A DNA stretch of 64,000 bases from the NCBI GenBank assembly GCA_040954595.2, contig CM082587.2, positions 10,917,403 through 10,981,402 of the forward strand, read 5' to 3'. This DNA is from Balanoglossus misakiensis. Its lineage: Eukaryota > Animalia > Hemichordata. Under the pieces are notes generated by a model that did not search any database, was not told the origin of the DNA, and saw only the letters and a list, made by a program, of their open reading frames with translations. Made by a program: the position numbers and the translations under genes. Of the stretch, positions 12,994 through 57,000 are shown piece by piece (positions within the stretch are counted from its first letter, which is position 1; each line of letters opens with the position of its first letter).

Positions 12994-12996
12994 ACA

Positions 12997-24689: not shown

Positions 24690-24692
24690 ACA

Positions 24693-28075: not shown

Positions 28076-28136
28076 CGAGTACTACCACTTAGCAGTGGTT
28101 CAAGATGATCCTGTTGAAATTGTAAGTTTTTCTCTT

Positions 28137-30028: not shown

Positions 30029-33000
30029 TTAGAAGTATCTGTCTCCGTGACTCTCATGAAATAGTTCATTTCTACTCTTAAGAGGCCTTGGTCTCCATTC
30101 CTCACTTCCACTGGCACTACCACTGTCGCCACTATACATGGGATTGTAGTGATAGATTTCTCTGAAGGCTTCCTCATCTTCCACACTTTCCCCTGCCTTG
30201 CTATCAACATCATCTGTATCATCAAACCAATGGATATCCATAGTTGCCTCTTGTTCTTCCCAGCCTGGATGTTTCTTTCCTCCAAGAGCACACCTGAATG
30301 TCAAATAGTTGAACATCATCAATGTGGGATTTGTTGTGATGTGGTTACTACTGTAGAATAACGCAGGTGGTTGTTGGACACTTTGCGGTCTGGTCGCGTG
30401 ACTTTGCCTTGTTAGCCGCCATGCATGTTGAACGCAAATTATACCATGATGCACTGCAGTTACCCTATACGCGAATAGGTCTATGCATGAACTCTTTGAA
30501 TAAATTTGCTTCCACGATACAGATGTGATTATTTTTCACGTTGCCTCATGCATGTATGGAAAGATACAGGTAAATTCCCAGTTTTCTGATGGGCAACATT
30601 TCTACAGCTGTCTCGATTCTACTCTGGTAGTACTAAATAACTTACCGTTGGTACATGAGTAACATTATTACACCAAGCACTAACACAGCCGCTAAACCTC
30701 CCGCAACACCACCAATGATGACAGCTGTGTCAACGGAGGAATCTGTAAGAGTTTAAATATTTCTATTTGTCACGGGGGCGATATGCTATGATAAAAGCAA
30801 GAAAACCATTCATTATGATGCTTAACTATTGTAAAATGGTTAGTTGACCAAAAATCTAGTTATACTGCAGATGTTGCAGTTTCACCATTTTCACAAATAT
30901 TTTCAAGACAACGTAAACTGTAATCATGTAGATCAAACAAATGTGTAAACTTTAGTGAATATTGTATTTTATTCTTGAGTTATTTAAAGACAAAGAAATG
31001 TATACACACCTTTAACTTGCATTGGTATTCTCTGGCGGCAAGTTTCACCTTGATATTCATCAGTACATTTACAAACAGGATTGCCATCACTGTCCTTGAT
31101 GCAAACAGCATTGTTTGAGCAGAACCCTTCACATTTGTCTAGACACAAGAATAAAATCACATCACATTATTCTACCTGACGAACCATTTGTATTAGACAA
31201 GAACTAAACCCACTTGTAGATTGATTTCTTACAAACGGAATGGAAGTTGTGTGCTGTCGAACGTTGATTCACTATATATCCACATGTACCGGGTGAATAA
31301 CAAAACAGTGTCTTGTATCAAACATAATTAATGGAAAAAGGGCAGCAAGAGAGATACTTTGTCCCTTTAATAGCATAAAATCAACAGTAGTGTCTACGTT
31401 TTAGCTGTACATATTTCTGTTGACATTTCAGTTGTAGATAGTTACATACCTGTACAAGTTATTCCATCACCAGTGAAACCAGTTTTGCAAGTGCATTCAT
31501 ATCCTGGTACAAGATTCCTGCAAGTGGCATTTGGGTGACAGTCATCCAGACCAAGACGACATTCATGTGCATCTAGAAAACAAAAATTCTTGCAATGTCT
31601 TTAACTGACCACCAAATAAAACTATGGGATCTTCATACATATCACCAGTTAAAGGTATACGGTCACCTATGGAAAATTAGCTATAGTTACCATGGCAAAA
31701 GGAGATCTAGCCAATCACAGATTTTCAGTGGGTGGCACATGCAAAAAGGAGCGCCACCATATGTTCTTTAGAACTCTCATATACTCCATTTCAGCCATAT
31801 ATGGGCATTTGTAAATTGGAGGTGACTGTATACCTTTAAGTTAGATGACTACCCAGATGCAGTGCATGGTTATCACATTCCATAGCCTAACATGTAGAAT
31901 TCTGAGAAAACAGTATTACAATATTGTTATTTCCGTGAAATTTTCAGAAAAGGTGTTAAAAGAGGAGCATTATTAAATTATATAAAAATATTGGATCACA
32001 CAACATATCAAATGATACTCTAAATAAAGAAGAAAAGTTCTTATAATGAAGTGTTTGTGTCAGATTGAACAGTTAAGGTTGATCTCCACAAGCACTTAAT
32101 GCATGTTATCAGTTCTATGATTATGAAAAATTATTCCTACCATCACATTCTGTTTCATATAGGGCACCCTCTCTGCCTGTAGTGTAGCCAGTTGGGCATG
32201 GTTGACAAGCATCCTGGTTGAATTCAAAGTTATATGTTCCATCAGGGCATTTCTCACATCTATAGGACTCCTGATTCAAGTACCAACCAACATTGCAGTA
32301 AGCTGTTGATGGAATGGAAAAAGAGCATAGAATAAAATTGGAGGACTATCATTATTCTGAACAACTGAGGCACAATAATACAACCTTCAGTTCAGTACAG
32401 TTGAGATACAACATGAAAAGTTGTATACATAATACTTACGAACATTACAATCTTCACTTAAGGTTGAACCGACTGTTCTTGTGGTGAAGCCAAATGGGCA
32501 CGGCATACAAGATGGCTGAAGTTCAGCATTTGATCGATAGGTTCCCATGGGACACGACTCACAAGACCCATTGACACTAAGTTGGACTCCCACTGATTTA
32601 CATACCTCTGGAATTGAGAAGATTAATTTTTTGATATTCACGATTATCTGCTTTTCACTCACGTGAATTTGTTAAACTGTTGAATATGTTACATATCTGG
32701 CGGTTCTAAAGTAAAAACCTACTCGGAAAAAAGTTTACTGGATGCCGAAATATTGCTTGCCTGTCACTAACAAATGATAACGCCATGGGTACGTCACATG
32801 GCCAGATCATGTGATTGATAGTCAAGAATAGCAAATAACACAAGTACCTACCCTGACATTGTGACTCATCAGTAGCTCCTTCAACTAATGTAAGCATTCC
32901 CTTTGGGCAAGTATTACACACAAACTTTCCTTCTTCTGATTGCCAGAATCCAATGGGGCAGCTTTGGCACTGAGAAGTCCCGTTGTCAAAGTAGTGACCA

Positions 33001-36000
33001 ACATCGCACCTCTCTGCAATAGACATCATTGTTGAAAAATTATTTTTTCAACCAAAGAGATGAACATTCCAATTGTCATTCTGTCCATATTGGATCACAC
33101 CACAATAATTTGATATATACGTCACAATTCCCGGCAAGGGGTATGGGGTTTTATCGGGCCAGTGGCATGAGTGAGGCTAGATGCTAGTTTTGGAAGCAAA
33201 GCGGACAAAATACGGCTAGATACTAGGCTATGGCTGTGGACGAGGAGGAGATATTGCCTTCTGTTATACATACCAAAACACTGCAAGATGGATAATGATC
33301 TCTTTCCCCTGGTGACTCCATTATTAGGGGACCAAGCGCCCTCAGGCGCTTGGTCCCCTTCTGTTATTGCTGGAGTTTTTCTTCTTTCTTCTTGAGTCGT
33401 TTTTTTGCTCCCGTTTTTCTCTGAAATTCCGGCACCTGCGCCTATGAAGTTTGGCACGATGATTGGGGCCCATGAGTACTAGTGCACCTGCCCTTTGAAT
33501 TTGTAATTAGTCACGTGACTTGGTGGCTATAATCGAGCGAAATTTTCAAATTGACCTAATTTGCACGTTAATGGGGGAATGTACATTCTTTTCGCGATTT
33601 TTGTAGACCATGTGGCCAAAATCCCTTGTGCCAAATTTCAAGGTCCTAGGCTACGTCGATTTTGAGAAGAAGATTTTTGTAATATTTTTCGCATTTTTGG
33701 TGGGCTGAGGACGGACACTGGGGCATCGGACTTTGACCGTCATTACGTAATGTTGTGGAGATCTCATTAGCAGGCTACTCACTTCTGGCGGGTTGCCGTA
33801 GTCCTTGGAAAATCGGCTGAAATACGTAAACAGACCAGTGATTATTTTCCACGGAATGAATTTTGGGATAACACATTATCCGAGTTCAGGCTGTGTTAGG
33901 GCGTTTTATTGAATTACGCTGAGTTTGTTAGCTGTTGCCGTTCAAATGTTTCTATCTAGACCTGGCTACACTGGTGAGGTATTTAAGGGTGTCGAAAAGA
34001 CAAGAGTGAGGGGCCAAAGTGCGGGACACGCACAGTGCAATAAATGGCACTCTGCGGGAATTCACGCACAATGCAATATATTCGACTCTGCGGGACTCTT
34101 GGCGCCCTCAACGATATGAAATGAAACGTTTAAATAGCGTTACGTCATGCATATAGTTTGGCAGTACTTCGTTATTATAGATTACATTTCAATAGAGAAT
34201 GGATCGCAAACAACGTCGTCGATTTTTTGAATCCCATCCATCGAATGTGCGAAGAAAGAAGCGGCCACACCAGGAGATCGCTAAAAGCGTAAAGCGCCAA
34301 CGTTTTGAGTAAGTATATATTAGAGTTGCACTGTTTGTAACACATAGCGTGCAGTATCATGTGATCGTGAAGGAGACAAAGGCCGGTATTAATTTGCCCT
34401 TTTCAGGTACGAAAGTCGCTCATTAAATGTCGGACAACAGGCGTTGATAGGTGTCATTAATTTAATTCTTTTAATAGTTTGATTGATTTATCCCGGCGGG
34501 GTGATCGTGTCCTCCCTTCTCTCTCAGGGCAAAACTGTATTAACCGCCATCTTGAAAACCGCATTGCATTGTGGGACGACTGGGGGGAAGTACCTGAAGA
34601 CCTGTGTTTTCAGCAACTACTATTTTATTTCAAACCAAAAAAATCCTGCCAATGAATACTCTGTAAGGGTAATCAGTCATAGCAGGGGAATTGATCTCTG
34701 GCACTCGATCACCAAGACTGGAGACCATAGACTGGAGTTAGGCCTTCTAACTAGGGTTTTAGTTTTATTTTTAACAAAGAAAAGCACAAAAAAATGTGAT
34801 ATCAGGATTTAATAGAAGTTGTACACAAACATTTATGTGTTATAAAAATTGAGTCCCAAATTTCAAATCAATCAGAGAAAAAAATGATTTAAGACCAAAA
34901 ACGGCCAAAATTGCCCCAAGAACACAAATATGGAAATTTCACTGATTTTTACAACAGCTTACTTTGGTTATGTATCCCTACTTTAAATTTGGCATGTTAT
35001 CAGCAAACACCTGATAGGAAGCCAGGTTTATGGGGGACTTATCTGCCTTGTGTGTACATTACTTGAGATAAAAATGGGGGGGGGGGGAGGTTAGCTGCTG
35101 GTAATGTAATGGTTTGTATATCATTTTAGTCAAATATCAATTTCTCTAGCACTGCCTCTCTAAAATTGCCATCACACATGACACTTTATTGGCCTATTGT
35201 TAATTTCTTTTTACATTTCTGTGTTTAAATATGGTTAGGTCAGATCTGCTTTTTTAATTAGTATCATATGTGTTGAGTACAATGAAAATTTATTTAGTTA
35301 TTGATATGCTCTTTCAAAACAATAGATACTTTTTTAGAGGAATCAGTGAACATAAATGTTTATATGTGACCAAGTTTTGTTTGTTTCTCTTCAGAATATC
35401 TTCAGTAGTTGGTACAATTGGCAATAACGCAAGGGAAGAATACCTGCATCAGTTACAAGCCCAGAACAGAAAGTGGGAGCTATCATCTGGCAATACATAT
35501 GTATTGTCAGATTGTGAAATTGAGACTGGGCAGTTGATATCACAGCACGTTATTGTCAAACGTAACCTGCGATTTTACGGTGTGCAGAGTACGTCTCAGG
35601 AGTTCCTGTATACATGTTCATGTCAGGATGGGTTAATCCAAGCAGCCAGATTATCCTCATCTCAGCGTGGGATACCAGAAAACTTTGATGAGTTCATCAC
35701 AACTGAAAAAAATAAATACTGTCTTCATGCCTGGGCAGCAAGTGAACTTTTTCCTGATGTACCTGTTGAAGTGGACCCCAACTCTGCAGACACATCAGTC
35801 ATTGTTGATTGCCTGTCATTGAATCCGTTCCTGACTAGTGTTACCATAGGTGAAGACACACATATAATATCTCTGAGGAACAAACATGTTGGTAAAAAAC
35901 TTAGCTGTGAGACCTGCGCATATGGTAGAACCACATGTGACCATGTTGAAGAATACCGAATATGGTGTGGACAAAATGAGGTTGAGATTCAAGAAACTGA

Positions 36001-39000
36001 ACGCACTTTGAAAGAAAGTACTTTCCCAAGCGTGTCATTTAAGCCAATCTCATACCCTCTTGATGACTCTCTGAAGGTCAAGTTTCAACAACAACAAAGT
36101 GGAGAACAGCCTGTACAGCATAATCTAATTCCCGAGATACCAAGTGCTGGCCCCCATTCTACCTGTCAACATGGACATGCATGGGATGTTGATGACCCTG
36201 TACAACAACATTGGCTTGTTGGAGATGCCATTGTGTATTATGAGACACATTCACTTCAGCATGTTTATGTAGAAGGAGAGGAACAAACTATCAAGGGTAA
36301 GTTAACCTTATTTACTGTACCATTGGTTTAAGGTTGCATTGGATCACTGCCATTTTTCCATTAAAATGTTTGATTGATACAAGACACCGTGAATATTATT
36401 CTACATATGGCTATATAGTGAATCACCGTTCGACCACACGCAACTTCCATCCCACTTATCTAATGATCTCCTACATGTATTGGTAATTATATTAACATAG
36501 TCATTATTTTCCTTGCAGTGTACTATCGTCCAAGTGTTGGTCCATGTATGTGCAGGTTGCATTATGATGGGCATGGAGATTTGATGTTTAATCTGAACAA
36601 CAAGGACATTATTCACTACAGTTTATTACTCTCCTACCTTCATTTGATGGTAGAGTCCAGAAATCCGTTGGCATCTTTCCATAGGTAAGTACATATACTT
36701 TGTATTTCTAAAAATATAATCATTGACTAGGGAACTTATGTATTTGGTAGCTCAGCAAGGAAAGATCAATACTGAAATTACCCATTAATACTTGAACGAA
36801 GGGGTGGTAAGCAAAATTTTTGTCTAAATATTCTCTAGGGAAGGCTGTTACCCATATAGTCAGTCATCAAATTTCAAAAGTTCATTGTTGCTTTTACCAG
36901 TCCGATAATTGTTTAGACCTGTCACATGCTCAAGAGCGCCATTTTTCCCATGATATAATTTACAGGGTGATTAGGAAGCCCACCAAAAACACATTTCTTG
37001 ATGTACCAGGTTGTATTCTTTTCACCCCCACCCCCCATTAATTTGGGGGCTCTTATCAGAGAAGGTACAGTATAAAAATGTTACAACAGATAAACATTAT
37101 AAACTTTCTTTCACTCCTGGCAATCACCTGACATTAATCTTTCTTTCTGTTCTTAAATAGGGCCTACTCTGAAAAACATGCTATGTTATCAGAGTCTGTT
37201 TCTTTGAAATACCACAAACTTAGGAATGCCTGGAATGCATTTGCAAGGCTATTGGACATAAATTATGGCACTGTATACCAATGCCCTATATGTGAGCTGC
37301 AGCCTTCTGTTCTGATATGTGATGGTACGAGTGTAGGACTGAACAAACGCCTCTTGCAAGAACTTCCAGACCCAGAGAGGGCATCACGTGACCAAGGCCA
37401 GCCTTTGGATATTGGTACACGTCACTGTGACCGAGTGTATATACCAAATGCCAAGGTCAGGAAACTGTTATTACAGTTTTGTAGTACCAACAAGCCAGCT
37501 GAGAAACCACTTACACCCCTTGAGTACACAGTGATGATTAATTTGATGAGAAAGTAGTCACCTCCATTCGCTTATGGAATTTCTCCAACTCGTCAGTGGA
37601 CACGGAAGAAATCTGCTAGCCCCAAAGGAGTTCTGCCAATTTCTTCAAGATTTGTCAAAAAACTCGCCTGCAAGTGCTCTTCTGCAATTGACCCCAGATT
37701 CACAGGCTAAACATGTCATCAAGAAAATAATACACGGACTCGATATATTTGACAGCAGACATCAAGGGGAACTTGAAATTGTACAGCAAGATGCTCCTCT
37801 TATTTTCAAATTGCTGTCACATTTCGGGCACAATCCTCATGGTATCCCAAGAGAAGTGCGTCGCCTTCTTAGAGATGTGTTGTTACGAGTGAGGAGCTCA
37901 TACAAAGTATGTAACCAGGGACCTGATAGTACTGTGCAATATCCAGATCCAATAGAAGACCCTGTAGCTTGCTTCCCTTGCCTACCAAAGCTTCATGGGT
38001 AAGGATATCTCACTGTAACTTGAAAGTTAATTGAAGTCTGTCTTAAGCCTCTAGAGCTGCCACTTTTTGCATTATTTTCATTACTTTTGTGAATTTTCAT
38101 TTCCCACTTAGACATACCTTTCTGTATACATGTTTATATGTATTCAAAATGGAAGTTTATGTACCCATGTGCTATGCATGCCATTGCCATTCTCTTAGTT
38201 ATCATGCTTTCACTTTTCATTTAATAGGAAACCTCTCTACCGGCAAGACAAAGACAGACTTGCACATGGTGATGACACTTGCCAAAAGATCTCCAACAAA
38301 CACCCTACGTTATCACCTGGCATTTTCACTGTGTTCTGTCAACATGGGTTCTGCTATGGCTTCCAGGCTATGAGGCAAGTGGAGTCACCCGAAGTGCCAT
38401 TCAACATTATGACAACAAGACTAAGACAACCTCCAGCCATTGTCATATATGACAATGCATGTCGGCTGCATCAGTACTGTTTAAATCGGTAAGTCTTATT
38501 TCAACCTTGATATACTGTTTTGTATGTTAATGTGATTACCACACTTCTGTTAAACTTAAGAGAAGGGTGGCTAAGCTTTATTTTATGCTCAATTATGCTT
38601 GCCCACCCTTGCCTTTAACTCAATTTTTTTTGCGATATGATCCAAGATGGTGGTCTGGCAGCCACTTTGTTACAATTTTTTCATATTGAGATGTCAGCTT
38701 GTCATATGGTTAATTTTGTGTTTTACCCCCCCCCCCCCCCAAAAAAAAAAAATCAAGAATTTGATGAATTGACGTTGCTTACTCCTTTCAGCAAGAATAT
38801 AAAGATTAGAACTAATGAAGTGATTTTTTGTCTTTCTTCAGAGAACCAAACTATTTCATGAAGACAGTTTTCTTAGTGGATCGTCTCCATTGGAAAAACC
38901 ACATTGGGTGAGTATCAGATTAAAAAGCTCAAAAGAATATTTTTCAAATCATCTATGTTTGGCAATTGCAGAGCTTAGTTGACTGGAACAGCTAAGAAGT

Positions 39001-42000
39001 ATACGACCAGTTAACCACATCATATTTGGAGTCAGTTAGGAGGTAGGAGACAGGGAAAGGATTTTGCTCTGATAAAATCAAATTTCACAATGGCAATCAC
39101 CGATTGGTCAATTCTATTATTCCACTCAGAGACATAACCCGGACTGGTGACATAAACAGGTTTGCTCAAATTACAACTTCTGACTGGCTCATAAGCTCTG
39201 TTAATCAGGTATCTGAAATGTATTCAGGGCATGTGTGTCAATTTTCTAAGGAACGATATCAATTTGTCTGAAAAAAATTGTTTATGTTTTATACTGTTAA
39301 AATTTTCACAGAAGAATCTTCTTTTATATTTTACTGATCAGTTGTTCATCAGGTTATAGCCTGCAACAGTACAAGGACAACAGAAGTTTGGCCAACATAA
39401 ATACCCAGATCTGTGAGCAGAGCAATGCAGCATTACAGAAAATTAAGGCACAAGTATCTTATATGACCCCAGATAATTTCATCTTCCATGTCAGACTGTT
39501 CCTTGCAATCTGGAATCAAAAGAAGAAAAGTCACCTGAACTACTTGTAGTTCAAGGTTTTAAAATAGATAAGTTTGTTTTTCCGATTTTTCTATTTAATT
39601 GAACAGAAAGCAATGACTGATATAAAGTATAAGGTCTTTTGTTTGTTCTGAAAACCGCACTTTAACTGTCTAGCTCGGACATTTTTTCAAATGAGTTATA
39701 GCTGAAACCATCTGGATTTATATTGATTTAGGACCATTCTTGCTTTCATTGTGGTCAACTTACATTACACAGAATACTATTAATTAATTCTCTGACTGTT
39801 TCAGTTGATTGTGTGACTGCAGCATTAGACACTTCAAGAAAACAAAAACTATATTTTTCCAGATTTATGAACGGTAGACCATCATCACAGTCACTCCCCA
39901 TGACTGCCGTCATATAAAGTCTGTCTGTTATTTTGTTTCAGTTTTTGAGAAGTACTGACAAACTGTCCATAATGAAGAGGGCAAATCCATGGATGATGTG
40001 TTACACGAGGTAACAAGATGACCCATATTCCCAAAGACATGAGATGCTTGGAATCATGCGATTTTATAACTGTGCTGATGAAAACGGTAAAAGATAACTT
40101 TAACATGATGCTTTATCATCTGTATCAGTAAAATTCTTGCTGCATGGTTTTACATTGCTGCTGTGCTGACAAAACAAAACAAGATGCATAAGAGAAAGTG
40201 GTGTTTTACAGTTTATTGTATTTGTTACTGACGTGTCGAATTTCCATTTTGTTATCAGAATGAGAATGTAGACCAGCCATATACATCTATGGGGAGATGG
40301 AATGTATAGGAGGTGTGTTCGCAGGGTACTAAAGAAGAAATTCAGTCATCAGAGGACAACTATGGAGGTGTTTTCATGGAAGTTTTTTAGCGTCTCAGAG
40401 ACGTATGCTCTGCATACACATACCAAACGGCCCTTCTCAGGGCCACCACATCCTTAAAAAAGAGAACTACCGTACACCGATAAACTTGTTAATAAAGAAG
40501 AAATGCACAAATCATTACACAGGCACACATGTATATAAAATTGAATAAAGAAGTACACCACACACCCGAGGTGGACTTTAGTGTTATTTTAATATACCGT
40601 TCATATTTGTCAAAAACAATCACTACTCAAAGATAACTGTCAAAAACAGCGTCAAGGACACTGGTCCCATTTAGGGATTAATCAAGAAAAAGTCTACACT
40701 GAAGTACATAGACAGACAGACACACACACACATAGAGAGAGATCAATGGGCAAACACTGACCCATAAGCTGCTAATGGCACGTGTACTGTACATACACCA
40801 AATAGAACAGCCAAATTCCGAAATACCTACGATTTGATTCCATTACAATTTTAAAGAACCCCATCCCATTAACTCACAACTTAAATTCTAAAGTACATTT
40901 GTAATCAGCCCAACACTTTGAGAAATATAGTTTTTTCAAATCAAAATTGGAAAGTATGCACCATAAATACAAGATATTGCCCCCACAAAATATTGACACT
41001 TTCATCATAGATTTTGTAAATCATTATGAGAACACACCTGGTAACCTGCAAATCAAATTTAAAAGCAATGGGGGTAGAGGGTTCTGAGAGTTTGGACCAA
41101 AAATGGCAAAAATCACCCCAAAATATACTATTGAATTCTTACCATGATTCAAAAAAAAAAAAAAATGAAAAACCTCTACACACCCTCAAATGATTTTTGT
41201 TATGAATTTGAAAAGTTTTTTTGTAAAAGAAGATTTTGGGAAAAAGATAAAAAATTCACCAAAATTAGTCATTTTATGATATCACCACAAAAAAATCTAT
41301 ATGATGTCTCAATAAAGTACACACCACTTTGCAAAGCAATCTGACCAATAATTAAGTTGCCGAGTTTTGACCAAATTCCCATTTTCCCAGCTAAAAAGAC
41401 AAAATCCCGCAGAATACAACAGATTGATAACTGCGTTTTGAAATGTACATTAATTAACACAGAAAGACAAGAATGGGAAAAAGAGTTAAAAGACAATGAA
41501 AATATCAACTCATAAGTTGAGTTTTTGACAAATTAAGCCCAAAACTTGTTCTGCATGATCGATTTGCAGGTTCTTGAACTGTTTTATGTGCTGGTGCATG
41601 AACTGGAGAACCACATTCACACTAACTTCTGATGCTTCAAATGCAGTTAATAATCTGTTGTACTCAGTGGGATTTTGTCTTTTTAGGGCCACTAGATGGA
41701 ATGGGTTTGTCCGACGCTTTTTTTTTGGAATTGGGCAACTGAGCACCAGGTCAAGAAGGTCCCCTGATTTCTTCATTTGGTGGAGTTTCTTCAGGGTTGC
41801 CAGCTCTTGTTGCAGTTCTTCATCATCTTGAACTTTTCTGGTCTTCCTTCCTGACCGTTGACTGCGGCGTGGTGGTAGTGATGCTGGTTGTTGGGTTTGT
41901 GCTGCTGGTGGTGATTCTGGCTGTTGGATTTGTGCTGCTGGTGGTGATTCTGGCTGTTGGATTTGTGCTGCTGGTGGTGATTCTGGCTGTTGGATTTGTG

Positions 42001-45000
42001 CTGCTGGTGGTGATTCTGGCTGTTGGATTTGTGCTGCTGGTGGTGATTCTGGCTGTTGGATTTGTGCTGCTGGTGGTGATTCTGGCTGTTGGATTTGTGC
42101 TGCTGGCTGTTGCTGTGGTAGTGTGTAAGACACTGGTGATAATTCTGCACTTGTGTTGATGGAACTGTTGGCTGATGGAGTTGCTGGCTGGGGTGATGGG
42201 TGAATGGGATGTGAACCTGAAAAGAAAATGAAATATAGAAGTGTATTGGTTGACATTATTCAATAGTTTTACTTAAGTCATCAGAACACAGGTAAAACAT
42301 AAAAATTAAAAACCTATTGACTACATAATGGCTTTTACCCCTTTTTACAGACACATAGCAAAATTTGGTATTTTTTAACACTGAGGTATCCCTCTCTCCA
42401 TACAAGAAGTACATGAAACAACCACTGAACAAAGGTTAAACTATAATAATTGTCCTAGTCACATTTAAATGACTATGTGTATTCAAATACAAAATCATTA
42501 ACACCATTATTATTAAATAATTATTATATTATACCGTATATTGATGGTGTAAATCACGCTATTTGATTGGTCGAGACACGACACGTGACCGTGATATATT
42601 AGCCATATACCACAGTCATATATCATAGTCAAAGAAAATGCCCTTTTAAAATGTTATATGCAAAGTTTCAATATACTGGCATAATATAATAGCAATAAAA
42701 CACCCCAGCCATGGTATACCACTCGATTTTGACCAGTTCAACTCCATATACGCACTCGCTATCGCTCGTGCGTATATGTCGTGAACTGGTCAAAAATCTC
42801 GTGGTATACCATGGCTGGGGGTGTTTTATTGCTTAAGTAATTGCAAAATTCATAATGACAATGATAGCAATCAAACTGACCAGAGTGGAACAAACTGCTT
42901 GTAACAGGAGAGATAAATACTGAATGGACAGATAAAGAGTGATTGTTTTGATTAAAGGATTGTAAGCAAGAAATTCAGTCTGTATCTCTCCAGTTACAAC
43001 CCGTTTTCCCCTGTTGGTTGGCTTGTTGTTTAAGTATATTTAAGTATATTTAAGTTTGCTAAGACATATTAAATCACGATCACTCCACCACATGGTCGAG
43101 GTTAAACATAGAACTTGGAGAGGTTTCACTGTGATAAAGAAAGTAATACATTGTAATAGGGATATTTCTTACCAAGATCCTCAAAATTTATTGTACTCAG
43201 ATCTTGTGTGAGGTAGTGAGGATCTGATTCATGCTGTATGAATGATAGCACTGCTCCAACTTCTGTGTTTGTGCCTTTATAGAGAAAAGATGAAAATGAC
43301 CTTTGTAAATATTGTAGAACTAAATTGGGTAAATGTACACATACACATGACTGAAAATGCCAAACGTTAAAAACACAAAATCCACACTGACGGCTCAAGA
43401 GGTCAGTACACCACGTATCGTCTAGTATTGAAAGTTGTTGTTTAAGTACAGTCTACTTTAACGTTTTAGACGATACTAGACTCTAGTATCGATAGTATCG
43501 ATACTATCGGATATTTTTGAGGTCCGACATAGTCGGGAAGCAGGCAAAGTTGTTGTTAAAGTGCAGTCTACTTTAACGTTTTAGACGATACTAGACTCTA
43601 GTATCGATAGTATCGATACTATCGGATATTTTTGAGGTCCGACATAGTCGGGAAGCAGGCAAAGTTGTTGTTAAAGTACAGTCTAGTTTAATGTTTTAGA
43701 CGATACTAGACGATAAATATCCGATATCGTATAAATGTGCAATGTCGCGCTGTCCTCTATTTTTGCGCTGTTACTTTTCTCGGAGCACACTCAATATAAA
43801 ATTGTCACGTATCGTATGGTGCATTCAAATGTATTAGATCCTGAAAATTGCCAGCGGAATCATATAAACCTACAAAATGATGTCAGTTGGCTTATACACA
43901 GTTCCTCCACAAACATAACTAACATATCGGGAAAATCATAGATAGTAGGGCGACTGCCGCTTGCTTCCAAGGGGAAAAAACGCAACTCTAAGGTGGTCAC
44001 GTGACCATAATGCGCATCCTACAGCTAATCCCCTCATTCGCACGTCCGAACAATGGGCGATTCCCGACCGTCTTTCTTGAGGGACTGTGGCTTATAAATT
44101 TGACATAGGTGAATTCGACACGACAAACCCAAGTCCAAACTCCCGACAGTGTCTCACATGACACGTACGATGCATCGCAAACAGCAAAAAAAAAAAAAAA
44201 CAAAAAAAAACAAGAAAAGCGCAACAAGTGATGATATCGAGGAATTTACTTCGAATTTGAATCTGCACGAATAATTTTACTGCATGATGCGAATAGAACA
44301 AAAATGTATGTACTGGACCCTGGTGTATGATTTTTACATTTTCTTTTTTACAGTCAAGGCTAAAAACATTTACCTTGTAGACTATGACTCTTCACGATCT
44401 ACATTATAGTTGCAATAAAAGACACGCTTACCTATAATAGAATGCCCAGCAATATCGTTTTCAGGTTGTGGATATTGGGTTGCACCCTCACCAGTCGGAC
44501 AATCAGTTGGCCTACTGACTTCATTATTGCCTGAGAAAAATTGGGCAATATCGCTTTCAAGTTGTGGGTCTCGGGTAACCGCTGCACCCTCACCAGTCGG
44601 ACAATCAGTAGGCCTACTGTCTTCATCATCGCCTGTGAAAAAGTGAGAACAAGTTTAGTAAGCCAAAATATTCTCACTGTTTTGCAGAGAAGTACTTACC
44701 AAGAGACCAGCTGAACAAAATTAAAAACCACTTTTAACAAAAAAACGTCATTTTCGGTACTGTGGTTAATTAAACTTTGTCAGTCGATGTTCGTTTTCAA
44801 GGCCTTCATCTCAAAAGAATGTATAGCTCGTGTAAAACGGATGATTTTGTTTATTGCTGAATCTATACATTCTCAGGAGTAATGTCTAGCAAACTTTCAC
44901 CATTCTAATTAAATAACCGTTTAAATGGTACGTACCTGTCAACTCGACCTGTCCATAATACTGGTAACATGACTTAGCAACGTCTTTCATGCGCGTGACC

Positions 45001-48000
45001 CACGAAGACGTTGAAGCAACCACTTTACCGGGCCGACTGGGGTTGCAGTACGGTGTTTCGGCTGGCCACCATACTGGCTTCATGTCTGGTCTGTCCCACA
45101 AAGGTTGGGCACGATTTGTGGTGCATTTTACCAATGCTGGTAAAAGTTCTCTTACATCATAGTAAGTGAACGAAGAGAGCTTCTTCTTATGGTGGTTTCT
45201 TAGATCTGGCAGTACGCTTTCTGGGGGTTGTTGATCATTATCATCACTAGGATGCGCTGGTACAGTCAGAAATGTTGAAACGTTTGCTTCAAGGGTTCTG
45301 GCAAGTGGCTGGGTGCCATGGATGACAAAAATCCGTTTCTTGGTGACGGGATCGAAAAACGTTGCAACAACTGCAGCTTCAATCTGTGTTTTCGTGTGAA
45401 ATTTGTCAAAGTGTGCAGTCAGTGACTGCCACTGTTGCCTTTGGTACTTCTTTGGGAACTGCATCATGACATAGAGAAGATCGGACAGCCCGGACAAGTG
45501 AAAAATAAAAGTCTTTTGTCCGACGGGCAAGTGACCTTTACCCTGTACTAAACGTGCGAGAACAGGTGTGTTTAACACTAATTGTATGCAAATTGCCGCG
45601 TAGAATGGTGTTTTATACCAAAACGCGCTCCCCACTAAAATATCTCACAGAAAAGTTCTAGGTCGACGCTTCGTGTCTGTTGATGAGCTACAGACGGTCC
45701 TCAACGAAATCGAGGCTACCCTAAACGATCGTCCCTCACCCATCTTTCGTCAGATTCCGAGGATCTTCCACCTTTGACCCCTTATTACATCGCCGTCCTA
45801 TCACCACATTACCATACTACACCGTTGATGATAGCGAGCTAAATGACCCAACTTTCGGCAATAAGAACGCGAACTGGCAAGACTAACATACCAGACCTAT
45901 TATAAAACTATATCATTTGAGTGCTGCACTGAACGAACGTACGATATTTCGGTACATTGGCCTATAATTATGAATATGTGTGAGTTGTTGTAACCACGAA
46001 CTTAATCAATTTCTGATAACTTTAAGTCTCGCCCGACATCACGGCCTTGAATGGCGTTACGGTGTACAAGTCTGTGTGCTGGTCACCGGGTGACGACCTT
46101 ATCGGTAGGAAGTTGTTCGAGAAAAAACTGCAAAATGAATATCATATATGGAGTAGGCCTACAACTTGGGAAAGCAAAAGGTTGTCAACTAAGATGTCAG
46201 TCAACAAGGTTTTAAAATTTGTTTCTGTTGAGCGCTATAACAGAGTTCACAAATGTAGGCAATAATGATCTCCACAAGTTCTTCAGTCAACACGCTACTC
46301 TCATGGAATAAAACCACAGAAAAATACTAGTAGTCAAATTGTCTGTGATAAAACGAACAAGGCAATAACTGAAAACAGGTGTAAATGTTGTTCGTTTTTC
46401 TCACTCCGATTATCGAGCTATTAGTGCTTTTAACCATTCTACTCGGGAGGAAATACCACCGTGAGATATAACTTCCACAGTATTTGTCCACAGTGATTAT
46501 TTATGTTTTAACTCGGTCGAATGTGACGATGAAGTCTTAGTTGAACTTAAATTTCTGTGCCAGTAGGTATACTTTTAGCATAAGTATTGCATCCGATGGG
46601 TCATCATTCTAAATGAGACTGCTTATAAAATGAAACGGTCTTATAAGTTTATTTTCCCTTCTACCGACTCATCCTACATGTCAACCCGATCATAGAGAAA
46701 TATTAGTTGAGTGGCGCAGATTGCCTTGCGCAAAATGAGCGTACCGATGAACCCCGCCCAGACCGATTCACATAGAGCATCTTAGCATCACGTAGACATG
46801 AAGGAAAACCCTTATCAGTAAAACAAAATGAACCCAAAGAATACAACACATAATAAAAATCTCACAAAAAGGGTCAAATAATCGCGGTTTTATCACGTGA
46901 GCCCAAAAACATTTCAAGATTAGGCACAAATGCAAACGTATACACGAAGAAAACGGCATTTCAAACGAGATTAAAAGCAGAAGCGAACGTAATACAGTAC
47001 GAAGTATGTACATGTGTAGGCATCGGGGGCACCCCAAATAAGATAATAAATAAACGACAAACACTATTGGATATGTTAGGTTTTTATTGGTACAACCTTG
47101 AAAAAAATAATTGTCGCAATATGATTGACAGGATCACAGTCACTCCAGGATGAACGACAAAATGATGCAACACCATTAACATTTTTATCAGCAAACATTT
47201 TATTTTAGTCCCGGTGTTGTGCCGAATTCGGCACCATGCCGAATACGTCCCCGCGCATGCCTTGACAAACAAACCATGGCTTCTAAGGGATAAGATCGGC
47301 AGGTAAAGCTGCCGATTTCAGCCCCGTTGCCGATTAAGACCCCAACTAAAGTCATGTTAACTATTGAAAGCTAAAAGTGATGGTTTCGGCCTAAATGGGT
47401 GAATATCTGCCCATGGCCCTGATTTGTTGGTGGAATGAAATTAAATCCTTGCGGTAATGCAATGTCCAAGTTTACAGTGCAGTACAATGTACATTCATGC
47501 ACAGCCTTACATGCACGTTGGATGGCAAAACTTTCACACAAGAAAATGCAATATTTCAGACACATGTTACTGATGACCCGAGCTTTTACTCTTACATAAG
47601 TTTGCGTGCATGAACCATGTTTTGGTTTGCAGTGGAAATTCTAGTCGAAACTACTGCCAACTTAGGGGAGGCATCGGCCGCGCGGTAAGGGCCTGGTCAG
47701 AATTAACAAGGGGGGAGGGCCGGTGCGATTGGGGGGAGGGTCACCATTTCTCATGCAACGGTTTGGGGGAGGGCCGCTACGTTTTGGGCACTTGTCAAGG
47801 GGAGGGTCATTAATTTTTGTGCAAGGATGACACCGATAATGTCAAAAATTTGAAGTGTTACAGAGAAATCCTGAAAAGAGACTTGCGCTCATATAGGCAC
47901 TCCTGTATGGATGTATTGACATCCCTTGTACTACAAAATACATCACACAACTCACAAAACATACACATGTACCAGTATGTGATCTTAAACCCCCTAACCC

Positions 48001-51000
48001 TAACCCTAACCCTAATTAGGGTCCAACGGGCATTAGGGGACCTGAGATTTCGGGCTCTAACCCTACTGCCTTGCCAATGTTTTTTTTACCCCTCCTTTTG
48101 ACACAATGTAGGTAAACATGTAAACAACAACAACAAAAAATATCAACAAAAACAAGTCAACCCTTCCATGTTTTTTAAGGTCGAGTCCCCCAATGCCCAA
48201 CTTATGTCTTGTTTGGCCAAAAAAAGAGGGTTAGAAAAAATTGTTTGGATTTATTTTGTTATCTTTTAGGTTGTTGTTATTGATTTTGGTCCCCTGTCTA
48301 ACCCCAGCCTTTAAAAAAAAACATTTTTAGAAAGGCCAAAAAAATGCCTTGGTGGGTATATGCAAGTTGCTCCAGACGGCAAGTCCAAATTGTGCATGGA
48401 CGGATTTCTTGGTAGGTACTTTTAAATTTTACATAAACCATAACAAACTATATATTTTCAGAAAGGTCTCGGCGAGTTTTATAACATACTAAAATTTGAC
48501 TAACTTTGAACTTGACCTTGAAAAGTTATTGCGGAAAAACCTATTGAAAAAAACATACTTTTTAGGGTACGCGGTGTCACCCCCTTAATATAGTTGGAAA
48601 CCACTGAAAATTACAGGATAGATTGATAATAAGTTGTTTTAATGTGGTGTGGTGAAAAAATTTTGAAATTCGAAGGTCAAGGTCAACTTCGCCATTGCTT
48701 ATAGTTGTTGGTTTACCTATGTCGGATTTCATTATCCTTTGACCTTTGACCTCGAAATTTGGTACACAAGTAGAGTGTCTATCTATAAACTCTTGACAAA
48801 AGTTACATTTAAATATTTTAACATAAAAGCACTTTTTTGACCAAAAAGCAAACTTCTGTAAATTAGCTGTAAATTAGCTTTTTTTTAATATACACTTTGC
48901 TTTTTTAAGATTATTTTTTTATTTTAAGCATTTCAAAGATGAAACTTTCCAGAAACCATCATGAGATGTTCTAGAATATAAAAAAGTTTACACTTTTGAG
49001 ATTGGACGCCATTAAGTATTCCAAATGTTGTTGCAAAATAGACTGAAATAATGCCCATAGACTTAACATGTATAAAAACAAAAGAATAATTTTTTTGGAC
49101 ACTTGGAAATTTTTTTTTAATGTATTTGTTTTGTCTTTTATATATGATATAGAGTAGTAATTGCTCTATTCAAAACACTATTTGGTTTAAAGATCTGATT
49201 TCATTTAGTCTTTTATTTTAATTTATTCTATTGTAATTATGCATGTTCAAGTATAGGGAAAATATTCAGTTTTGCAGGCAGGGCAAAGGGGGGGTAATTA
49301 AACAGCAGGGGATTATGCAATGCAAACACTTGAACTGGCCAGTAACGTTTGAATTCCTCATTTGCATACAGTTTTTCAACTTTTTTCAGAACGAAAGTTC
49401 AGTAACTTGCAACCCATTTCTGACAATTATTTCACCCCAGGCACATTACTGGTACTATGAATGTACTACATGTGATTTTTCATGAAGTTTTATCGAGAAG
49501 AATTTCTTTACTTCCACTGACAAAATTGTGATCACGAAATTCAAAGTGACATTGAAGTTAAAAAATCAAAAAAAAAATATCTGCCATACCCACACAAAAA
49601 TTAACCCCCTCAGGTTTTAGAAACATTATTAAACTCCTCTATTCATAATTTTGTCATGAATATATCCATGCCGTGGGTCAAGGACCACAATTTACAGTGC
49701 CATAGGTCAGTCCTGAGAAGTCAGTCAGCGTGAATAGTGTATAGACTCCGTATGTAATATGCTAATGAGAGTTAACGACGCGTTGAAAAGGAAGCCATTA
49801 CGTCATGGGTTAACATGCGTTGACCTACTTCAATGCATACACATATGGCAAACACGGCTGTACTCGTCGATGGCGAAGGCAATTTTTACACCGTCATTAC
49901 TCCACAACGGAGCGGCTCACACTATTATAATTTCACGGTAACTTAGTTCAATATCTTCCTAACCTACCCAATTTTTTTCAAGACAAGAAATCTTTTCCGT
50001 GAGTCAGGGACCACAATTTCAATCAACATACCGAAACTGTCTTTCTCGGGAACGCGTCGTTAAAACTTCACGAAAAATCATCCTATCATTGACTGTGGTG
50101 TTTCATACACGTCTTAGAAAAATGGATGCACTACGATCACTTGAAGTACCGAAAATCTCCGTTTGAAAATTTTTCCAACCGGCCGTAACTGCCACTCAGT
50201 GACGTTCACATTCAAATAGATCTCTTTGATGTCACCGCCGTAATTACCCCCCCTTTGCCTTGCCTATTTGAGGTTAAGTTTGCATTACTTTTAACACACT
50301 TAAAATCGACGGTCCCAGACCTCGGACCACAGGTGCTCGTGGACTTGTGCTGTCACAGGGGAGATATTCAGAATACTAGCAACAAATGCCAAACTAGCAA
50401 CACCGGCTTTCTTTGAGGGGGCAACCGGCTTTCTTTGAGGGGGCCTACACGTTATCTCTAAAATTGAACGTATATGTACAAGAGAGGTTTAATAGCGATG
50501 CCAAGAAGAAGAAAAATACCAAGACAAGAGCATGACAACAGAAGTTTCAATAGTTTATTTGGCACATAAAAGGCGAAAATTGCGTGCACACTGTACAGAC
50601 ATCGCATATAAAATAACAACACATTTTGATGAGTTTTACCGTGTGTTTTCGGAACGCGAATGCATATAGCAAGGAGAAGACACGGAACGTGCACACGTAC
50701 ATACGCATGGCCTTTGTTTCTAGCTCGTGTTCATGAAGCTGCAGCCTGTCATATGGGTGATGGCACATACATGCTCTGCAGGGTCCGTGAAGTTTGTTAC
50801 TTATTCCTTATTCCTTATTCCTTATTCGAATGTGAAGTTTGTTACTTATTCCTTATTCCTTATTCCTTATTCGAATGCGAAGTTTGTTACTTATTCCTTA
50901 TTCCTTATTCGGATTATGAAGTCTGTGACTTATTCCTTATTCGGATTCTGAAGTCTGTGACTTTTTTCCTTATTCAAAGCTTATTCCTTATTCGAAATCT

Positions 51001-54000
51001 GAAGTCTGTGACTTATTCCTTATTCGAAATCTGAAGTCTGTGACTTATTCCTTATTCGAAATCTGAAGTCTGTGACTTTTTCCTTATTAAAAGCTTATTC
51101 CTTATTCGAATCTGAAGTCTGTGACTTATTCCTTAATCGGATTCTGAAGTCTGTGACTTTTTCCTTATTCAAAGCTTATTCCTTATTCGAAATCTGAAGT
51201 CTGTGACTTTTTCCTTATTCAAAGCTTATTCCTTATTCGAAATCTGAAGTCTGTGACTTATTCCTTATTCGAAATCTGAAGTCTGTGACTTATTCCTTAT
51301 TCGAAATCTGAAGTCTGTGACTTATTCCTTATTCCTTATTCTTTATTCGAATGCGAAGTTTGTTACTTATTCCTTATTCCTTATTCGGATTATGAAGTCT
51401 GTGACTTATTCCTTATTCGGATTCTGAAGTCTGTGACTTTTTTCCTTATTCAAAGCTTATTCCTTATTCGAAATCTGAAGTCTGTGACTTTTTCCTTATT
51501 CGGATTCTGAAGTCTGTGACTTTTTCCTTATTCAAAGCTTATTCCTTATTCGAAATCTGAAGTCTGTGACTTTTTCCTTATTCAAAGCTTATTCCTTATT
51601 CGAAATCTGAAGTCTGTGACTTATTCCTTATTCGAAATCTGAAGTCTGTGACTTTTTCCTTATTAAAAGCTTATTCCTTATTCGGATTCTGAAGTCTGTG
51701 ACTTATTCCTTATTCGAAATCTGAAGTCTGTGACTTTTTCCTTATTCAAAGCTTATTCCTTATTCGAAATCTGAAGTCTGTGACTTTTTCCTTATTCAAA
51801 GCTTATTCCTTATTCGAAATCTGAAGTCTGTGACTTATTCCTTATTCGGATTCTGAAGTCTGTGACTTTTTCCTTATTCAAAGCTTATTCCTTATTCGAA
51901 ATCTGAAGTCTGTGACTTTTTCCTTATTCAAAGCTTATTCCTTATTCGAAATCTGAAGTCTGTGACTTATTCCTTATTCGAAATCTGAAGTCTGTGACTT
52001 ATTCCTTATTCGAAATCTGAAGTCTGTGACTTATTCCTTATTCCTTATTCTTTATTCGAATGCGAAGTTTGTTACTTATTCCTTATTCCTTATTCGGATT
52101 ATGAAGTCTGTGACTTATTCCTTATTCGGATTCTGAAGTCTGTGACTTTTTTCCTTATTCAAAGCTTATTCCTTATTCGAAATCTGAAGTCTGTGACTTT
52201 TTCCTTATTCGGATTCTGAAGTCTGTGACTTTTTCCTTATTCAAAGCTTATTCCTTATTCGAAATCTGAAGTCTGTGACTTTTTCCTTATTCAAAGCTTA
52301 TTCCTTATTCGAAATCTGAAGTCTGTGACTTATTCCTTATTCGAAATCTGAAGTCTGTGACTTTTTCCTTATTCAAAGCTTATTCCTTATTCGAAATCTG
52401 AAGTCTGTGACTTTTTCCTTATTCAAAGCTTATTCCTTATTCGAAATCTGAAGTCTGTGACTTTTTCCTTATTCAAAGCTTATTCCTTATTCGAAATCTG
52501 AAGTCTGTGACTTATTCCTTATTCGGATTCTGAAGTCTGTGACTTTTTCCTTATTCAAAGCTTATTCCTTATTCGAAATCTGAAGTCTGTGACTTTTTCC
52601 TTATTCAAAGCTTATTCCTTATTCGAAATCTGAAGTCTGTGACTTATTCCTTATTCGAAATCTGAAGTCTGTGACTTATTCCTTATTCGAAATCTGAAGT
52701 CTGTGACTTATTCCTTATTCCTTATTCTTTATTCGAATGCGAAGTTTGTTACTTATTCCTTATTCCTTATTCGGATTATGAAGTCTGTGACTTTTTTCCT
52801 TATTCAAAGCTTATTCCTTATTCGAAATCTGAAGTCTGTGACTTTTTCCTTATTCGGATTCTGAAGTCTGTGACTTTTTCCTTATTCAAAGCTTATTCCT
52901 TATTCGAAATCTGAAGTCTGTGACTTTTTCCTTATTCAAAGCTTATTCCTTATTCGAAATCTGAAGTCTGTGACTTATTCCTTATTCGAAATCTGAAGTC
53001 TGTGACTTTTTCCTTATTAAAAGCTTATTCCTTATTCGGATTCTGAAGTCTGTGACTTATTCCTTATTCGAAATCTGAAGTCTGTGACTTTTTCCTTATT
53101 CAAAGCTTATTCCTTATTCGAAATCTGAAGTCTGTGACTTTTTCCTTATTCAAAGCTTATTCCTTATTCGAAATCTGAAGTCTGTGACTTATTCCTTATT
53201 CGGATTCTGAAGTCTGTGACTTTTTCCTTATTCAAAGCTTATTCCTTATTCGAAATCTGAAGTCTGTGACTTTTCTCTTATTCGAAATCTGAAGTCTGTT
53301 GTCACGACTGAGTTTGAACGCTCATAGATCCTTTCTATGATTACGTAAGATGTCATTCACTTGTATTGACATAGGTACTTGACCCAGAGTAAACAAGCTT
53401 GTGTAATTGATACATGTCAGAACTCTATCACTTGCTAAGTTCATGTTTAAGAAATATTAAGATGACGTGTTCCTTTTATGACTTAAGGGACCGTTCAGTT
53501 TTTACGGCCGGGGGGGGGGGACGAAAAACCAATCGAATGTTTATAAGTTCATGTATGTTAGCATCGTTCTGTGAGGAAAGTACTATCAAAGGTCACCGTA
53601 GTTCACCCCAAAATTGGGCAAAACAATTGGACCCCATACTAGTCTAGATCCAACAAAAACCAGACCCCTCTTGTGTAAGACTCCATTATGTGCTCCATCG
53701 GCCCCCCAAAAGCCAGGACTCTAACTGCTGTGGATGCTGAGATATGGGAAAGAAGATCAAAGGTCATCCAAGGTCACCCAAAATTTGGGGAAAAATTTTG
53801 ACCCCATACTGGTCCATGTCCAACAAGAATGAAACCTCTAGCCCTATTGGTTAGCCTGGAATAAGTTATGCACATAATTAATGAGATAAGCAGGTGTCAC
53901 AGGTAACCCCCAATTTTGGCTTTTCAATTTTAGTCCCAACCCTCCAAACGCCAAGTCTGTACCTGCTCTGGGTGCCGAGATATAGGAAAGTAGGTCAAAA

Positions 54001-57000
54001 GTCATCTGAGGTCACCCAAAATTTGGGCAAAATTGTTTTCAGATTTTCGTCAGATTTCGAATAAGGAATAAGTCACAGACTTGAGCTTTGAATAAGGAAT
54101 AAGTCACAGACTTCAGAATCCGAATAAGGAATAAGCTTTGAATAAGGAAAAAGTCACAGACTTCAGAATCCGAATAAGGAATAAGTCACAGACTTCAGAT
54201 TTCGAATAAGGAATAAGTCACAGACTTCAGATTTCGAATAAGGAATAAGCTTTGAATAAGGAAAAAGTCACAGACTTCAGATTTCGAATAAGGAATAAGC
54301 TTTGAATAAGGAAAAAGTCACAGACTTCAGAATCCGAATAAGGAATAAGTCACAGACTTCAGATTTCGAATAAGGAATAAGTCACAGACTTCAGATTTCG
54401 AATAAGGAATAAGCTTTGAATAAGGAAAAAGTCACAGACTTCAGATTTCGAATAAGGAATAAGCTTTGAATAAGGAATAAGTCACAGACTTCAGAATCCG
54501 AATAAGGAATAAGTCACAGACTTCAGCTTTGAATAAGGAATAAGGAATAAGTAACAAACTTCACATTCGAATAAGGAATAAGGAATAAGGAATAAGTAAC
54601 AAACTTCACATTCGAATAAGGAATAAGGAATAAGGAATAAGTAACAAACTTCCATCACCTTGCTCTGCAGACATCACGTTTTTTGCAGTGCATTCATCCT
54701 GTGAACATGTCATAGTCCTGCCCGGAAAATCGTTTGCGTGGATTTTGATTTGCAAACGCGTCGCACGTCAACAGTGCGATCTTGTATCAATGAATGACCT
54801 TGACGTCATAACACGGGTTTTCCGGAACAAGCATAGACGGGATAACTCACTTCCCGCTCGAATTAGAACGCAAAGATGTGCATATGGCGTGAGTGCAGCG
54901 ACAGTCTCCAGCGAAATTGTTGCGCGATGGGATGTGATCCGACACGCAGGGAACGGACCTTGCTCTGTTGGTCATTGGGTTTACCACTTACGAATGCAAC
55001 ATCAGGACAGTAGAAAATGTCGATTGTGGGTGGTTGATCGCCCGATCATTTATTATTTTCAACGCCCGAATGTCGTCGGACATCGTCAAAAACACGATCG
55101 ACCTCCTCGAAATGCAACATGAAAGTAGAAAATGTCGATCGTGGGTGGTTGATCGCCCGATCATTCGCCCGAATGTCGTCGGACGTTGTCAAAAACACGA
55201 TGGAACTCCTCGAAATTCAAATGTAATCAAAGCCAAGGGTCCTCCCACATCTTGTGCAGTGTGCGTATTCCCGCAGATTCGAATATATTGCATTGTGCGT
55301 GAATTCCCGCAGAGTGCCATTTATTGCACTGTGCGTGTCCCGCACTTTGGCCCCTCACTCTTGTCTTTTCGACACCCTTAAATACCTGCACTGGTTAACA
55401 TTCAATGTATTGCGGCAGCAGACCAATGATTTTCTTGCACGAAGGGAGTATGGTACCAGCAATAATCAGAGATCAGGCTTCTTTGCCGTTCAACAGTTCC
55501 TACTTCAGTCGTGACGTTGCAACTGAACGTTCAGTATGGGGGTTGGCCCGCAGGTGGCCGTGGGGGTTATCAGATCGCCCGTAATGGCACGCAGCTTCAT
55601 GCAGCTGTATGGGACCAAAATAATACGCCCGATTCGGGGGTCACCTGTGACACCTGCGTAACTCAATTATGTGCATGCGTAATTGTGGGGTCAATGAAAG
55701 GGATGCTAGTGTGGTATTTGTTGCAAATGGATCAATATGAAGTCCGATTTTCCTGTCAAGTTAGGCTGCATTCACAAACACCTCAGGAGGGGGGGGGGGG
55801 GCAGGAGAATTGAGGCGGGGATTTGAAATAATTTTGGGACTGAAAGGGCGGGGACTTGAAAACTTTGACGACTAAATATTTATTTTGAGTCCACAAAAAT
55901 GCAGTTTCGCGCCCTTTATTTTACAAAATTTTCTAATTAAATGCAGCTTTGAGCTCTGTATTTTATAAAATTTTCTTACGTGCACCCCCTCCCAAACCCA
56001 CCCCCTTCAATTCTCGGTTTACAATGTCTCCCAACACAGGATACAAATACTTAAAAAATGGGAGCGCTGTTTTTCTTTTTTTACAAGATAGATACTAGGT
56101 GATGTGTTTTGCTCTGTGAAAGAAAATGGGGAGGGGGGATTTCAAAATTTTGGCAGTTCGGAAGGGGGGGATTTGAAATTTTTCGGGTTGTGTACGGGTG
56201 GCATGTGAAAATTAGCGGTAAAACAAATTGAATTCTCCCCCCCCCCCTCAAGAGGTGTTTGTGAATGCAGCCTTATGGGCGATCTTATGTGACATTTCAC
56301 CTACTTTTGCTTAGTGAGCATCCACAGCAGATGCATGCAGCTTTGGCGTGGGGGGGGGGGGCATATACGGATGGGACCATAAAGATATACCAAAGGCGGG
56401 GTCACCTGTTGCACCTGCCTAAGTCATTGATTTTGTACATTTAATTGGACACTAAGGCTGCATTCACAAACACCTCTGGAGGGGGGGGGGGGGCAGGAGA
56501 ATTCAATTTTTTTTACCGTTAATTTTCACATGCCCCCCTCAACAACCCGAAATATTTTCAAATCCCCCCCTTCCGAACTGCTAAAATTTTGAAATCCCCC
56601 CCCAATTTTCTTTCACACAGCAAAACACATCACCTATCTATCTTGTAAAAAAGAAAAACAGCGCTCTCATGAAAAGAATTTGAAACTGATGTTTCCCCTT
56701 ATCAGTGGGTATTAAAACTGAACATAATTGTTTCTATTTTTTTTAACTTAGTATTCTGTGTTGGGAGACATTGTAAATCGAGAAGTGAAGGGGGTGGGTT
56801 TGGGAGGGGGTGTCCCCCTCCCACGTACGAAAATTTTATAAAATACAGAGTTCACAACTGCATTTTAATGAACCCGGCAAAAGCAAATTAACTCAACTAC
56901 CGGTATGTTGGGGAGGACAAATTTAACCGTCGCTGCTCAAAGTTATCATGGGGTGGGGGCAAGTCCCCTGACCTGGGACACTAGATAAAACAGTCAATGA

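Follow-up and report, generated by a model that had tools for sequence, protein, structure and literature searches.

A KDZ transposon of the acorn worm Balanoglossus misakiensis with an NRF1-like gene between its ends, and a possible role for that gene as an end-binding helper

Introduction

Why should a transposon carry, beside its transposase gene, a gene for a protein that resembles the transcription factor NRF1? The question is raised by a stretch of 64,000 nucleotides from Balanoglossus misakiensis (assembly GCA_040954595.2, contig CM082587.2, positions 10,917,403 to 10,981,402 of the forward strand; called the window below). It holds a 21.4-kb element with a spliced transposase of the Kyakuja-Dileera-Zisupton (KDZ) family and a convergent NRF1-like partner gene. 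The partner gene is very probably a heritable part of the element. The element is a KDZ transposon bounded by terminal inverted repeats (TIRs), and we put at roughly one in two the probability that it works with two proteins, the NRF1-fold partner acting as a helper on the element's own ends.

Results

Ends of the element and target site

The element spans 33976 to 55388. Its boundaries are made up of the following features.

33969 to 33975: left target-site duplication (TSD), CACTGGT, 7 bp, exact (probability of a random match of two 7-mers in the window, 1.4e-4)
33976 to 34095, plus strand: left terminus and TIR, with a unit of ~36 bp repeated about twice and bearing TGCG...CGCA motifs (inverted-repeat comparison)
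from 55262, just inside the right TIR: third motif, TGCG-N6-CGCA (motif scan)
55269 to 55388, minus strand: right TIR and terminus (inverted-repeat comparison)
55389 to 55395: right TSD, CACTGGT, exact

A reading of the window from sequence alone had announced near-perfect 120-bp TIRs with CACTGGT duplicated on both flanks. The inverted ends and the duplication are present as described, but the paired length is 119 bp on each side (33977-34095 and 55269-55387, 118 of 119 bases identical) and the outermost bases, 33976 and 55388, are unpaired. The termini are G-AGGTAT and C-AGGTAT. CACTGGT is the sole exact 7-mer duplication at symmetric boundaries; an 8-bp TSD in this single copy would need one mismatch and asymmetric ends.

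The transposase gene

34199 to 39549, plus strand: KDZ transposase, 7 exons, about 850 amino acids (GT-AG sites, Pfam, homologue alignment)
Exons, plus strand: 34199-34308, 35395-36296, 36519-36684, 37161-37998, 38228-38488, 38842-38907, 39342-39549

All six introns of the transposase gene are of the GT-AG type, and the exon structures of both genes are based on such sites and on homologues. CDGT, YDNAC and CEQ are catalytic motifs of KDZ transposases; here they are placed in exons 4, 5 and 7 respectively, with CxC4 in exon 3. In Pfam, the KDZ domain (PF18758) is matched by exon 5 alone at E 5e-4 and 20.2 bits, below the cut-off of 26.6, and full-length homologues reach E 1e-5, just below the cut-off. 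CxC4 is matched on exon 3 at E 0.0024, also below the Pfam cut-off, which the homologue P0159 attains. No SWIM match was returned by Pfam for the transposase exons; a CxC...CxH pattern, which we take to be SWIM-like, is visible in exon 2. The predicted structure of the homologue P0165 has a pLDDT (predicted local distance difference test) below 50 across most of the core. Annotated homologues can be aligned with the gene model over its full length. The nearest relatives are in the acorn worms Ptychodera flava (64% identity over 404 amino acids) and Glandiceps talaboti (46% over 853 columns, XP_077987997), followed by lancelet proteins at 36-41%.

The seven-exon, plus-strand transposase with KDZ motifs was thus correctly recognized from the sequence, and profile matches to CxC4 and KDZ bear it out. 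A frameshift had gone unremarked: the spliced coding sequence is 2551 nt and is two bases short near 37549. Read contigs from both runs of one sample that cover exon 4 carry 0 substitutions and 2 extra letters in an interval spanning 37549, and the residue count of a homologue is that expected with two bases more. The usual form of the element is therefore likely to have an intact transposase reading frame, and the frameshift would belong to this copy or to its assembly. The start of the transposase (34199-34260) reads RRRFFESHPS, like the R/K-x-x-(F/Y)E(S/T)NP segment preceding the dimerization helix of host NRF1 (P0015, P0018); the partner protein has no counterpart to it, and the likeness may be due to chance.

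The NRF1-like partner gene

41510 to 45467, minus strand: NRF1-like partner, 4 exons, 513 amino acids (Pfam, fold, open frame)
Exons, minus strand: 45467-44936, 44632-44432, 43274-43173, 42216-41510

The partner frame is open throughout its 513 codons, with no internal stop, and runs towards the transposase on the opposite strand, as had been proposed. Exon 1 scores 54.7 bits with Nrf1_DNA-bind (PF10491) in Pfam, where the cut-off is 23.5. The protein is laid out as NRF1 dimerization and DNA-binding domains, a linker of proline/glutamine repeats, a basic RRS-R-RKT motif and a tail of ~100 residues; these C-terminal 100 residues had no match in Pfam or Atlas. The human NRF1 dimer 8K4L is matched both by the structure model (mean pLDDT 85; Foldseek E 1.8e-8) and in a profile comparison (E 1.3e-22). 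A weaker fold match to MEF2/MADS fits the MADS-like dimerization domain published for NRF1, for which R206, N242 and R244 are given as base-reading residues (PMC10810270). Equivalents of R206 and N242 are kept. The partner is accordingly predicted, from its model, to be an NRF1-fold protein that dimerizes and binds DNA.

Its closest relatives, among 22 looked up of 150 listed matches, all cluster representatives, are acorn-worm proteins encoded at several loci per genome. These begin directly with the domain, lack the long N-terminus of host NRF1 and share private motifs in exons 3 and 4. In a 34-row tree the partner family (11 rows) is separate from host-type NRF1 with support 92/90, and identity to host NRF1 is 23-26%. 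With this separate branch and the replacement of R244, the partner does not appear to be an orthologue of host NRF1. Longer homologues of the partner domain were not found by word search among 427 candidates (0/427). A fusion of the NRF1 domain to a transposase was not seen among 21 divergent matches scanned, of which two carry zf-CXXC.

Bivalves, Owenia and Amphiura also have divergent NRF1-domain proteins (P0103, P0143, P0108, P0088, P0118, P0119), and in two of these the domain is fused to zf-CXXC. Two further observations concern the surroundings of the gene.

41391 to 41686 (41391-41438 and 41639-41686): inverted copy, 48 bp, of sequence in the partner's final coding exon, just past the stop (self-comparison)
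45604 to 45883, plus strand: scrap upstream of the partner ATG, without a Pfam match, presumably resembling a BEL/Pao retrotransposon integrase

The inverted copy could form a hairpin in the transcript.

Recurrence of the gene pair

In P. flava, KDZ proteins XP_070537884-887 are followed by the NRF1-like XP_070537888, and XP_070532873-875 by the NRF1-like XP_070532876-877; the RefSeq accessions are consecutive and the contigs of equal size, adjacency being inferred from the accessions rather than from coordinates. Of the loci found, the consecutive pairs account for two of the six with a transposase and two of the five with an NRF1-like gene, for which chance gives ~6e-6. A third P. flava partner lies on a 4.8-Mb scaffold with a transposase, 144 accessions apart.

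Read data from one sample bear on the number of copies. From the left subterminal region through the two genes to 47.2 kb, near-identical read contigs have a uniform depth. For the genes this is 199-242 in all eight listed pieces of run X1 and 1015-1237 in six of the eight of run X2. A diverged NRF1-like paralogue has depths of 46 and 156, and the element contigs stand at ~4-7 times that. Since the depth is equal over the genes and exceeds that of the paralogue, these data suggest several recent near-identical copies, each with both genes.

A second, compact element with both genes

A scan of genome contigs gave two loci, L001 and L002, out of 14 candidate stretches; they represent one insertion, duplicated along with its flanks. 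The element at L001 is 5,442 bp long, with TIRs of ~600 bp (560/628 identical) and an 8-bp TSD, and no gene was detected in it beyond a decayed KDZ transposase and an NRF1-like gene, arranged head-to-head. The boundaries assigned in the window are supported by the termini of L001, C-AGGTAT and G-AGCTAT, which resemble those of the window element, down to an unpaired C/G base at the outer edge. As L001 has an 8-bp TSD and head-to-head genes, neither the 7-bp TSD nor the convergent orientation defines the lineage.

L001 lies on a 2.56-Mb contig (CBDBCZ010000017.1) with spliceosomal-type introns and Tc1-like and KDZ elements. This contig is filed in a Nitrospirales metagenome-assembled genome (G001, a GTDB representative) and is likely misbinned animal DNA or another eukaryotic contaminant. 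A PF10491 search of G001 returned no match, though the L001 partner, known to be present, escaped it as well. On the side examined, neither gene was seen at four weak TIR look-alikes in G001. The pair was absent from 42 stretches of viral contigs (0/42), and among metagenome contigs 1 of 17 was returned, a 2.9-kb contig too short to judge. The partner alignment offers no stretch conserved enough for a locus scan.

Is the partner gene part of the element?

Together, the consecutive pair at two P. flava loci and the pair inside L001 argue that the partner is inherited with the element. Co-occurrence, which the sequence-only reading had proposed as a check, is seen at these loci but is incomplete, as set out below. 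Two alternatives bear on this point.

The NRF1-like gene could be passive cargo, a fragment of a host gene captured once or repeatedly and of no benefit to the element. The L001 partner is not placed among those of acorn worms, several transposase loci are without a partner among those looked up, and the element tolerates much nested DNA, all of which would suit such a history. However, the frame is open over four exons, a W/P/C core and the private motifs are kept among partners only 35-50% identical, and the compact L001 holds nothing else detectable. Passive cargo is hence improbable. It is less probable still that an independent host gene or separate mobile element lies between the TIRs by coincidence: NRF1-like loci without a consecutive transposase do occur among those found (3/5 in P. 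flava, 2/2 in Glandiceps), but the surroundings of the partner showed neither inverted repeats nor a TSD belonging to the gene itself, as the reading of a single element had supposed. The pair is seen at three further places, and the two genes have equal contig depth.

What would the partner do?

As to function, the proposed explanation takes two steps from knowledge of the family and two from analogy. The D-D-E residues of the transposase would cut at the TIR tips, and the cut ends would be inserted at a target staggered by 7-8 bp. A dimer of the partner may recognize repeated motifs in the terminal repeats, and may recruit or assist the transposase, as a Myb-like protein does for Harbinger. 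All five TGCG-N(2-10)-CGCA pairs of the 64-kb window lie inside the element ends. In L001 the partner differs at the base-reading positions, and the TIR repeats are different too, with 0 TGCG/CGCA and 33 TCCA/TGGA. That the TIR motifs are targets of the partner is a hint only. A complex prediction for a P. flava transposase (P0168) with a partner domain (P0003) scored 0.00 and gave no answer.

The main rival accepts that the partner travels with the element and makes it a transcription or anti-silencing factor, acting on promoters or ends and taking no part in cutting. Host NRF1 is described as a promoter-binding activator (PMC10810270), and anti-silencing cargo is on record in other transposons, namely TET/JBP and Vandal proteins (PMC12730594). 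The long proline/glutamine-rich region of the partner resembles an activation domain, and the left TIR lies ~100 bp upstream of the transposase ATG. The motifs, however, are present at both ends, one of them ~10 kb from the partner start codon. We regard this role as rather unlikely, though less so than either alternative above.

Several observations weigh against the end-binding helper and against a fixed gene pair. Among the proteins looked up, no adjacent partner was found for four of the six transposase loci in P. flava or for any of the four in Glandiceps, lookups being confined to the 22 cluster representatives mentioned. Two of the eight listed X2 pieces have lower depth, 718 and 180, the latter a diverged piece; the depth, taken from a single sample that may be the one assembled, has no single-copy baseline and ends at ~47,600. 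Pfam gives the L001 partner a weak match (E 0.06; E 1e-6 with our own hidden Markov model), and the protein is unplaced in the 34-row tree, so that it may have been captured independently. None of five short KDZ remnants in G001 has a partner within ~10 kb, and gene orientation differs, convergent in the window and head-to-head in L001. At the level of DNA recognition, R244 of NRF1 is replaced in the partner, and canonical NRF1 half-sites number 0 in the element ends. The TIR motif was chosen post hoc by trimming TGCG from NRF1's TGCGC, and the TGCG/CGCA pairs stem from one repeated unit, for which shuffling gives P 0.015. Binding to the ends as the main role of the partner is, on balance, about evenly poised.

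A wider picture is doubtful at present. An old and widespread animal KDZ lineage might be an obligate two-protein transposon, in which an NRF1-fold end-recognition dimer and the TIR repeats change in concert, the dimer at its base-reading residues. It would be the source of orphan invertebrate NRF1-domain genes and may have traded its domain with, or given rise to, host NRF1/EWG.

Size, nested repeats and other features of the window

50782 to 54660: foldback/minisatellite insert with its own 10-bp TSD, TGCTCTGCAG (repeat analysis)
49276 to 50265: probable nested miniature inverted-repeat transposable element with 25-bp inverted ends, no exact TSD seen (inverted-repeat analysis)
42691 to 42833: palindromic high-copy repeat in partner intron 3 (self-comparison; very high read depth)

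The element had been called giant. The distance of 21.4 kb between its ends stands, but transposase and partner together span 11.3 kb. The foldback insert (3.9 kb) consists of inverted arms of 32/50-bp minisatellite units, and its central part holds a repeat recurring at 7240, 12454 and 24150; the repeat at 42691 to 42833 is likely a non-autonomous element nested there, and further repeats are found within the transposon or recur outside it. Because these repeats lie inside, the size is partly secondary, at least 3.9 kb being nested insert.

The remainder of the window contains the following.

1 to 7091: 86-bp satellite, 82 copies, 99% matches
~7500 to 19500 and ~19700 to 29300: tandem duplication of ~11.7-12.1 kb, 96-99%, with pieces of endonuclease and reverse transcriptase of long interspersed nuclear elements (LINEs)
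16794 to 17798: open reading frame (ORF) with DUF3504 and tyrosine recombinase, Crypton-like
32709 to 33047, minus strand, and 60109 to 60432, minus strand: Ephrin_rec_like exon (E 8e-14) and weak Sushi exon, flanking the element
62054 to 64000, minus strand: LINE-type reverse transcriptase ORF (RVT_1, E 8e-36)

Given the flanking exons, the insertion probably lies within an intron of a host gene, which we take to be SVEP1-like.

Discussion

End recognition by KDZ transposons and the role of their extra genes form a largely unexplained field; ORFs beyond the transposase, where described, are TET/JBP or unnamed. For the partner studied here, a human relative has a solved structure and its base-reading residues are known. 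As the element also appears to belong to a recent multi-copy family, the usual form of which likely has an open transposase frame, binding and excision tests are direct. If the helper model is true, a split between catalytic and DNA-binding proteins of the Harbinger style would have been invented a second time, independently. A conserved animal transcription-factor fold would then be linked to transposons, and the expansions of 'NRF1-like' and 'Ewg-like' genes in invertebrate annotations would be explained.

Comparison with known systems

The window element is a KDZ element, closest in architecture to Zisupton, although the transposase tree was built without reference Kyakuja, Dileera or Zisupton sequences. 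CDGT/YDNAC/CEQ, the CxC4 and KDZ matches and a TSD within the 7-8-bp range agree with this assignment. Fish Zisupton carries SAP and SUMO-protease domains; none was found here by Pfam. With Zisupton-type elements (Cryptococcus deneoformans KDZx1 and fish Zisupton) the window element shares CxC4 ahead of the KDZ core, a transposase of several exons and the 7-8-bp TSD; KDZx1 also has a second ORF but lacks TIRs, and that ORF is of no assigned type. A CxC4 + SWIM architecture is that of Zisupton (Huang et al., PMC11343200), and multi-exon Zisuptons are known in animals (PMC9297572). A Dileera reading was dropped, CxC4 being tied to Zisupton (PMC11343200). Zisupton, including that of fish, and Dileera are described with 8-bp TSDs, and Kyakuja with 7 bp and without TIRs (Kojima 2025, PMC12730594). 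The Zisupton length is thus not found here: the window element has 7 bp at symmetric boundaries and 8 bp only with a mismatch, in one insertion.

With Cryptococcus neoformans KDZ1-3 and the fungal TET+ Dileera/Kyakuja elements, the window element shares large size (9-17 kb in those elements), extra ORFs, long TIRs (236 bp in KDZ1) and the TSD range (8 bp in Dileera, 7 bp in Kyakuja). KDZ1-3 differ in having CxC1 rather than CxC4, the fungal cargo described is TET/JBP or unassigned, and Kyakuja is without TIRs. Long TIRs and the 7-bp TSD had been put forward as unfamiliar in KDZ elements, and the size as giant. None of the three is a novelty: KDZ1 has 236-bp TIRs, 10.9 kb and extra ORFs (Huang et al., PMC11343200), the 7-bp TSD is published for fungal Kyakuja, and the consensus of Zisupton-1_PGr runs to ~17,000 characters (Kojima 2025, PMC12730594).

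PIF/Harbinger elements serve as the working model, with a two-gene layout and a separate DNA-binding protein (Myb/SANT/MADF). The Myb-like protein of Harbinger3_DR binds a 9-bp subterminal motif and the transposase, both proteins being needed (PMC9710019). The transposase family is unrelated, the DNA-binding fold is another one and the TSD is 3 bp (PMC12730594), so that the window element is no Harbinger and the likeness would be a functional analogy only.

With host NRF1/EWG/P3A2 (PF10491, 8K4L) the partner shares MADS-like dimerization and DNA-binding subdomains and the R206/N242 equivalents. It differs in its 23-26% identity, the missing long N-terminal region, the replaced R244, several loci per genome, a separate tree branch and its place inside a transposon. 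Full-text literature searches returned no paper on the pairing and no link between NRF1 and KDZ transposons, a Repbase/Dfam entry for the family still being possible. Long TIRs, large size, the 7-bp TSD and extra ORFs all have precedents in fungal KDZ elements, and what looks new is the NRF1-family partner.

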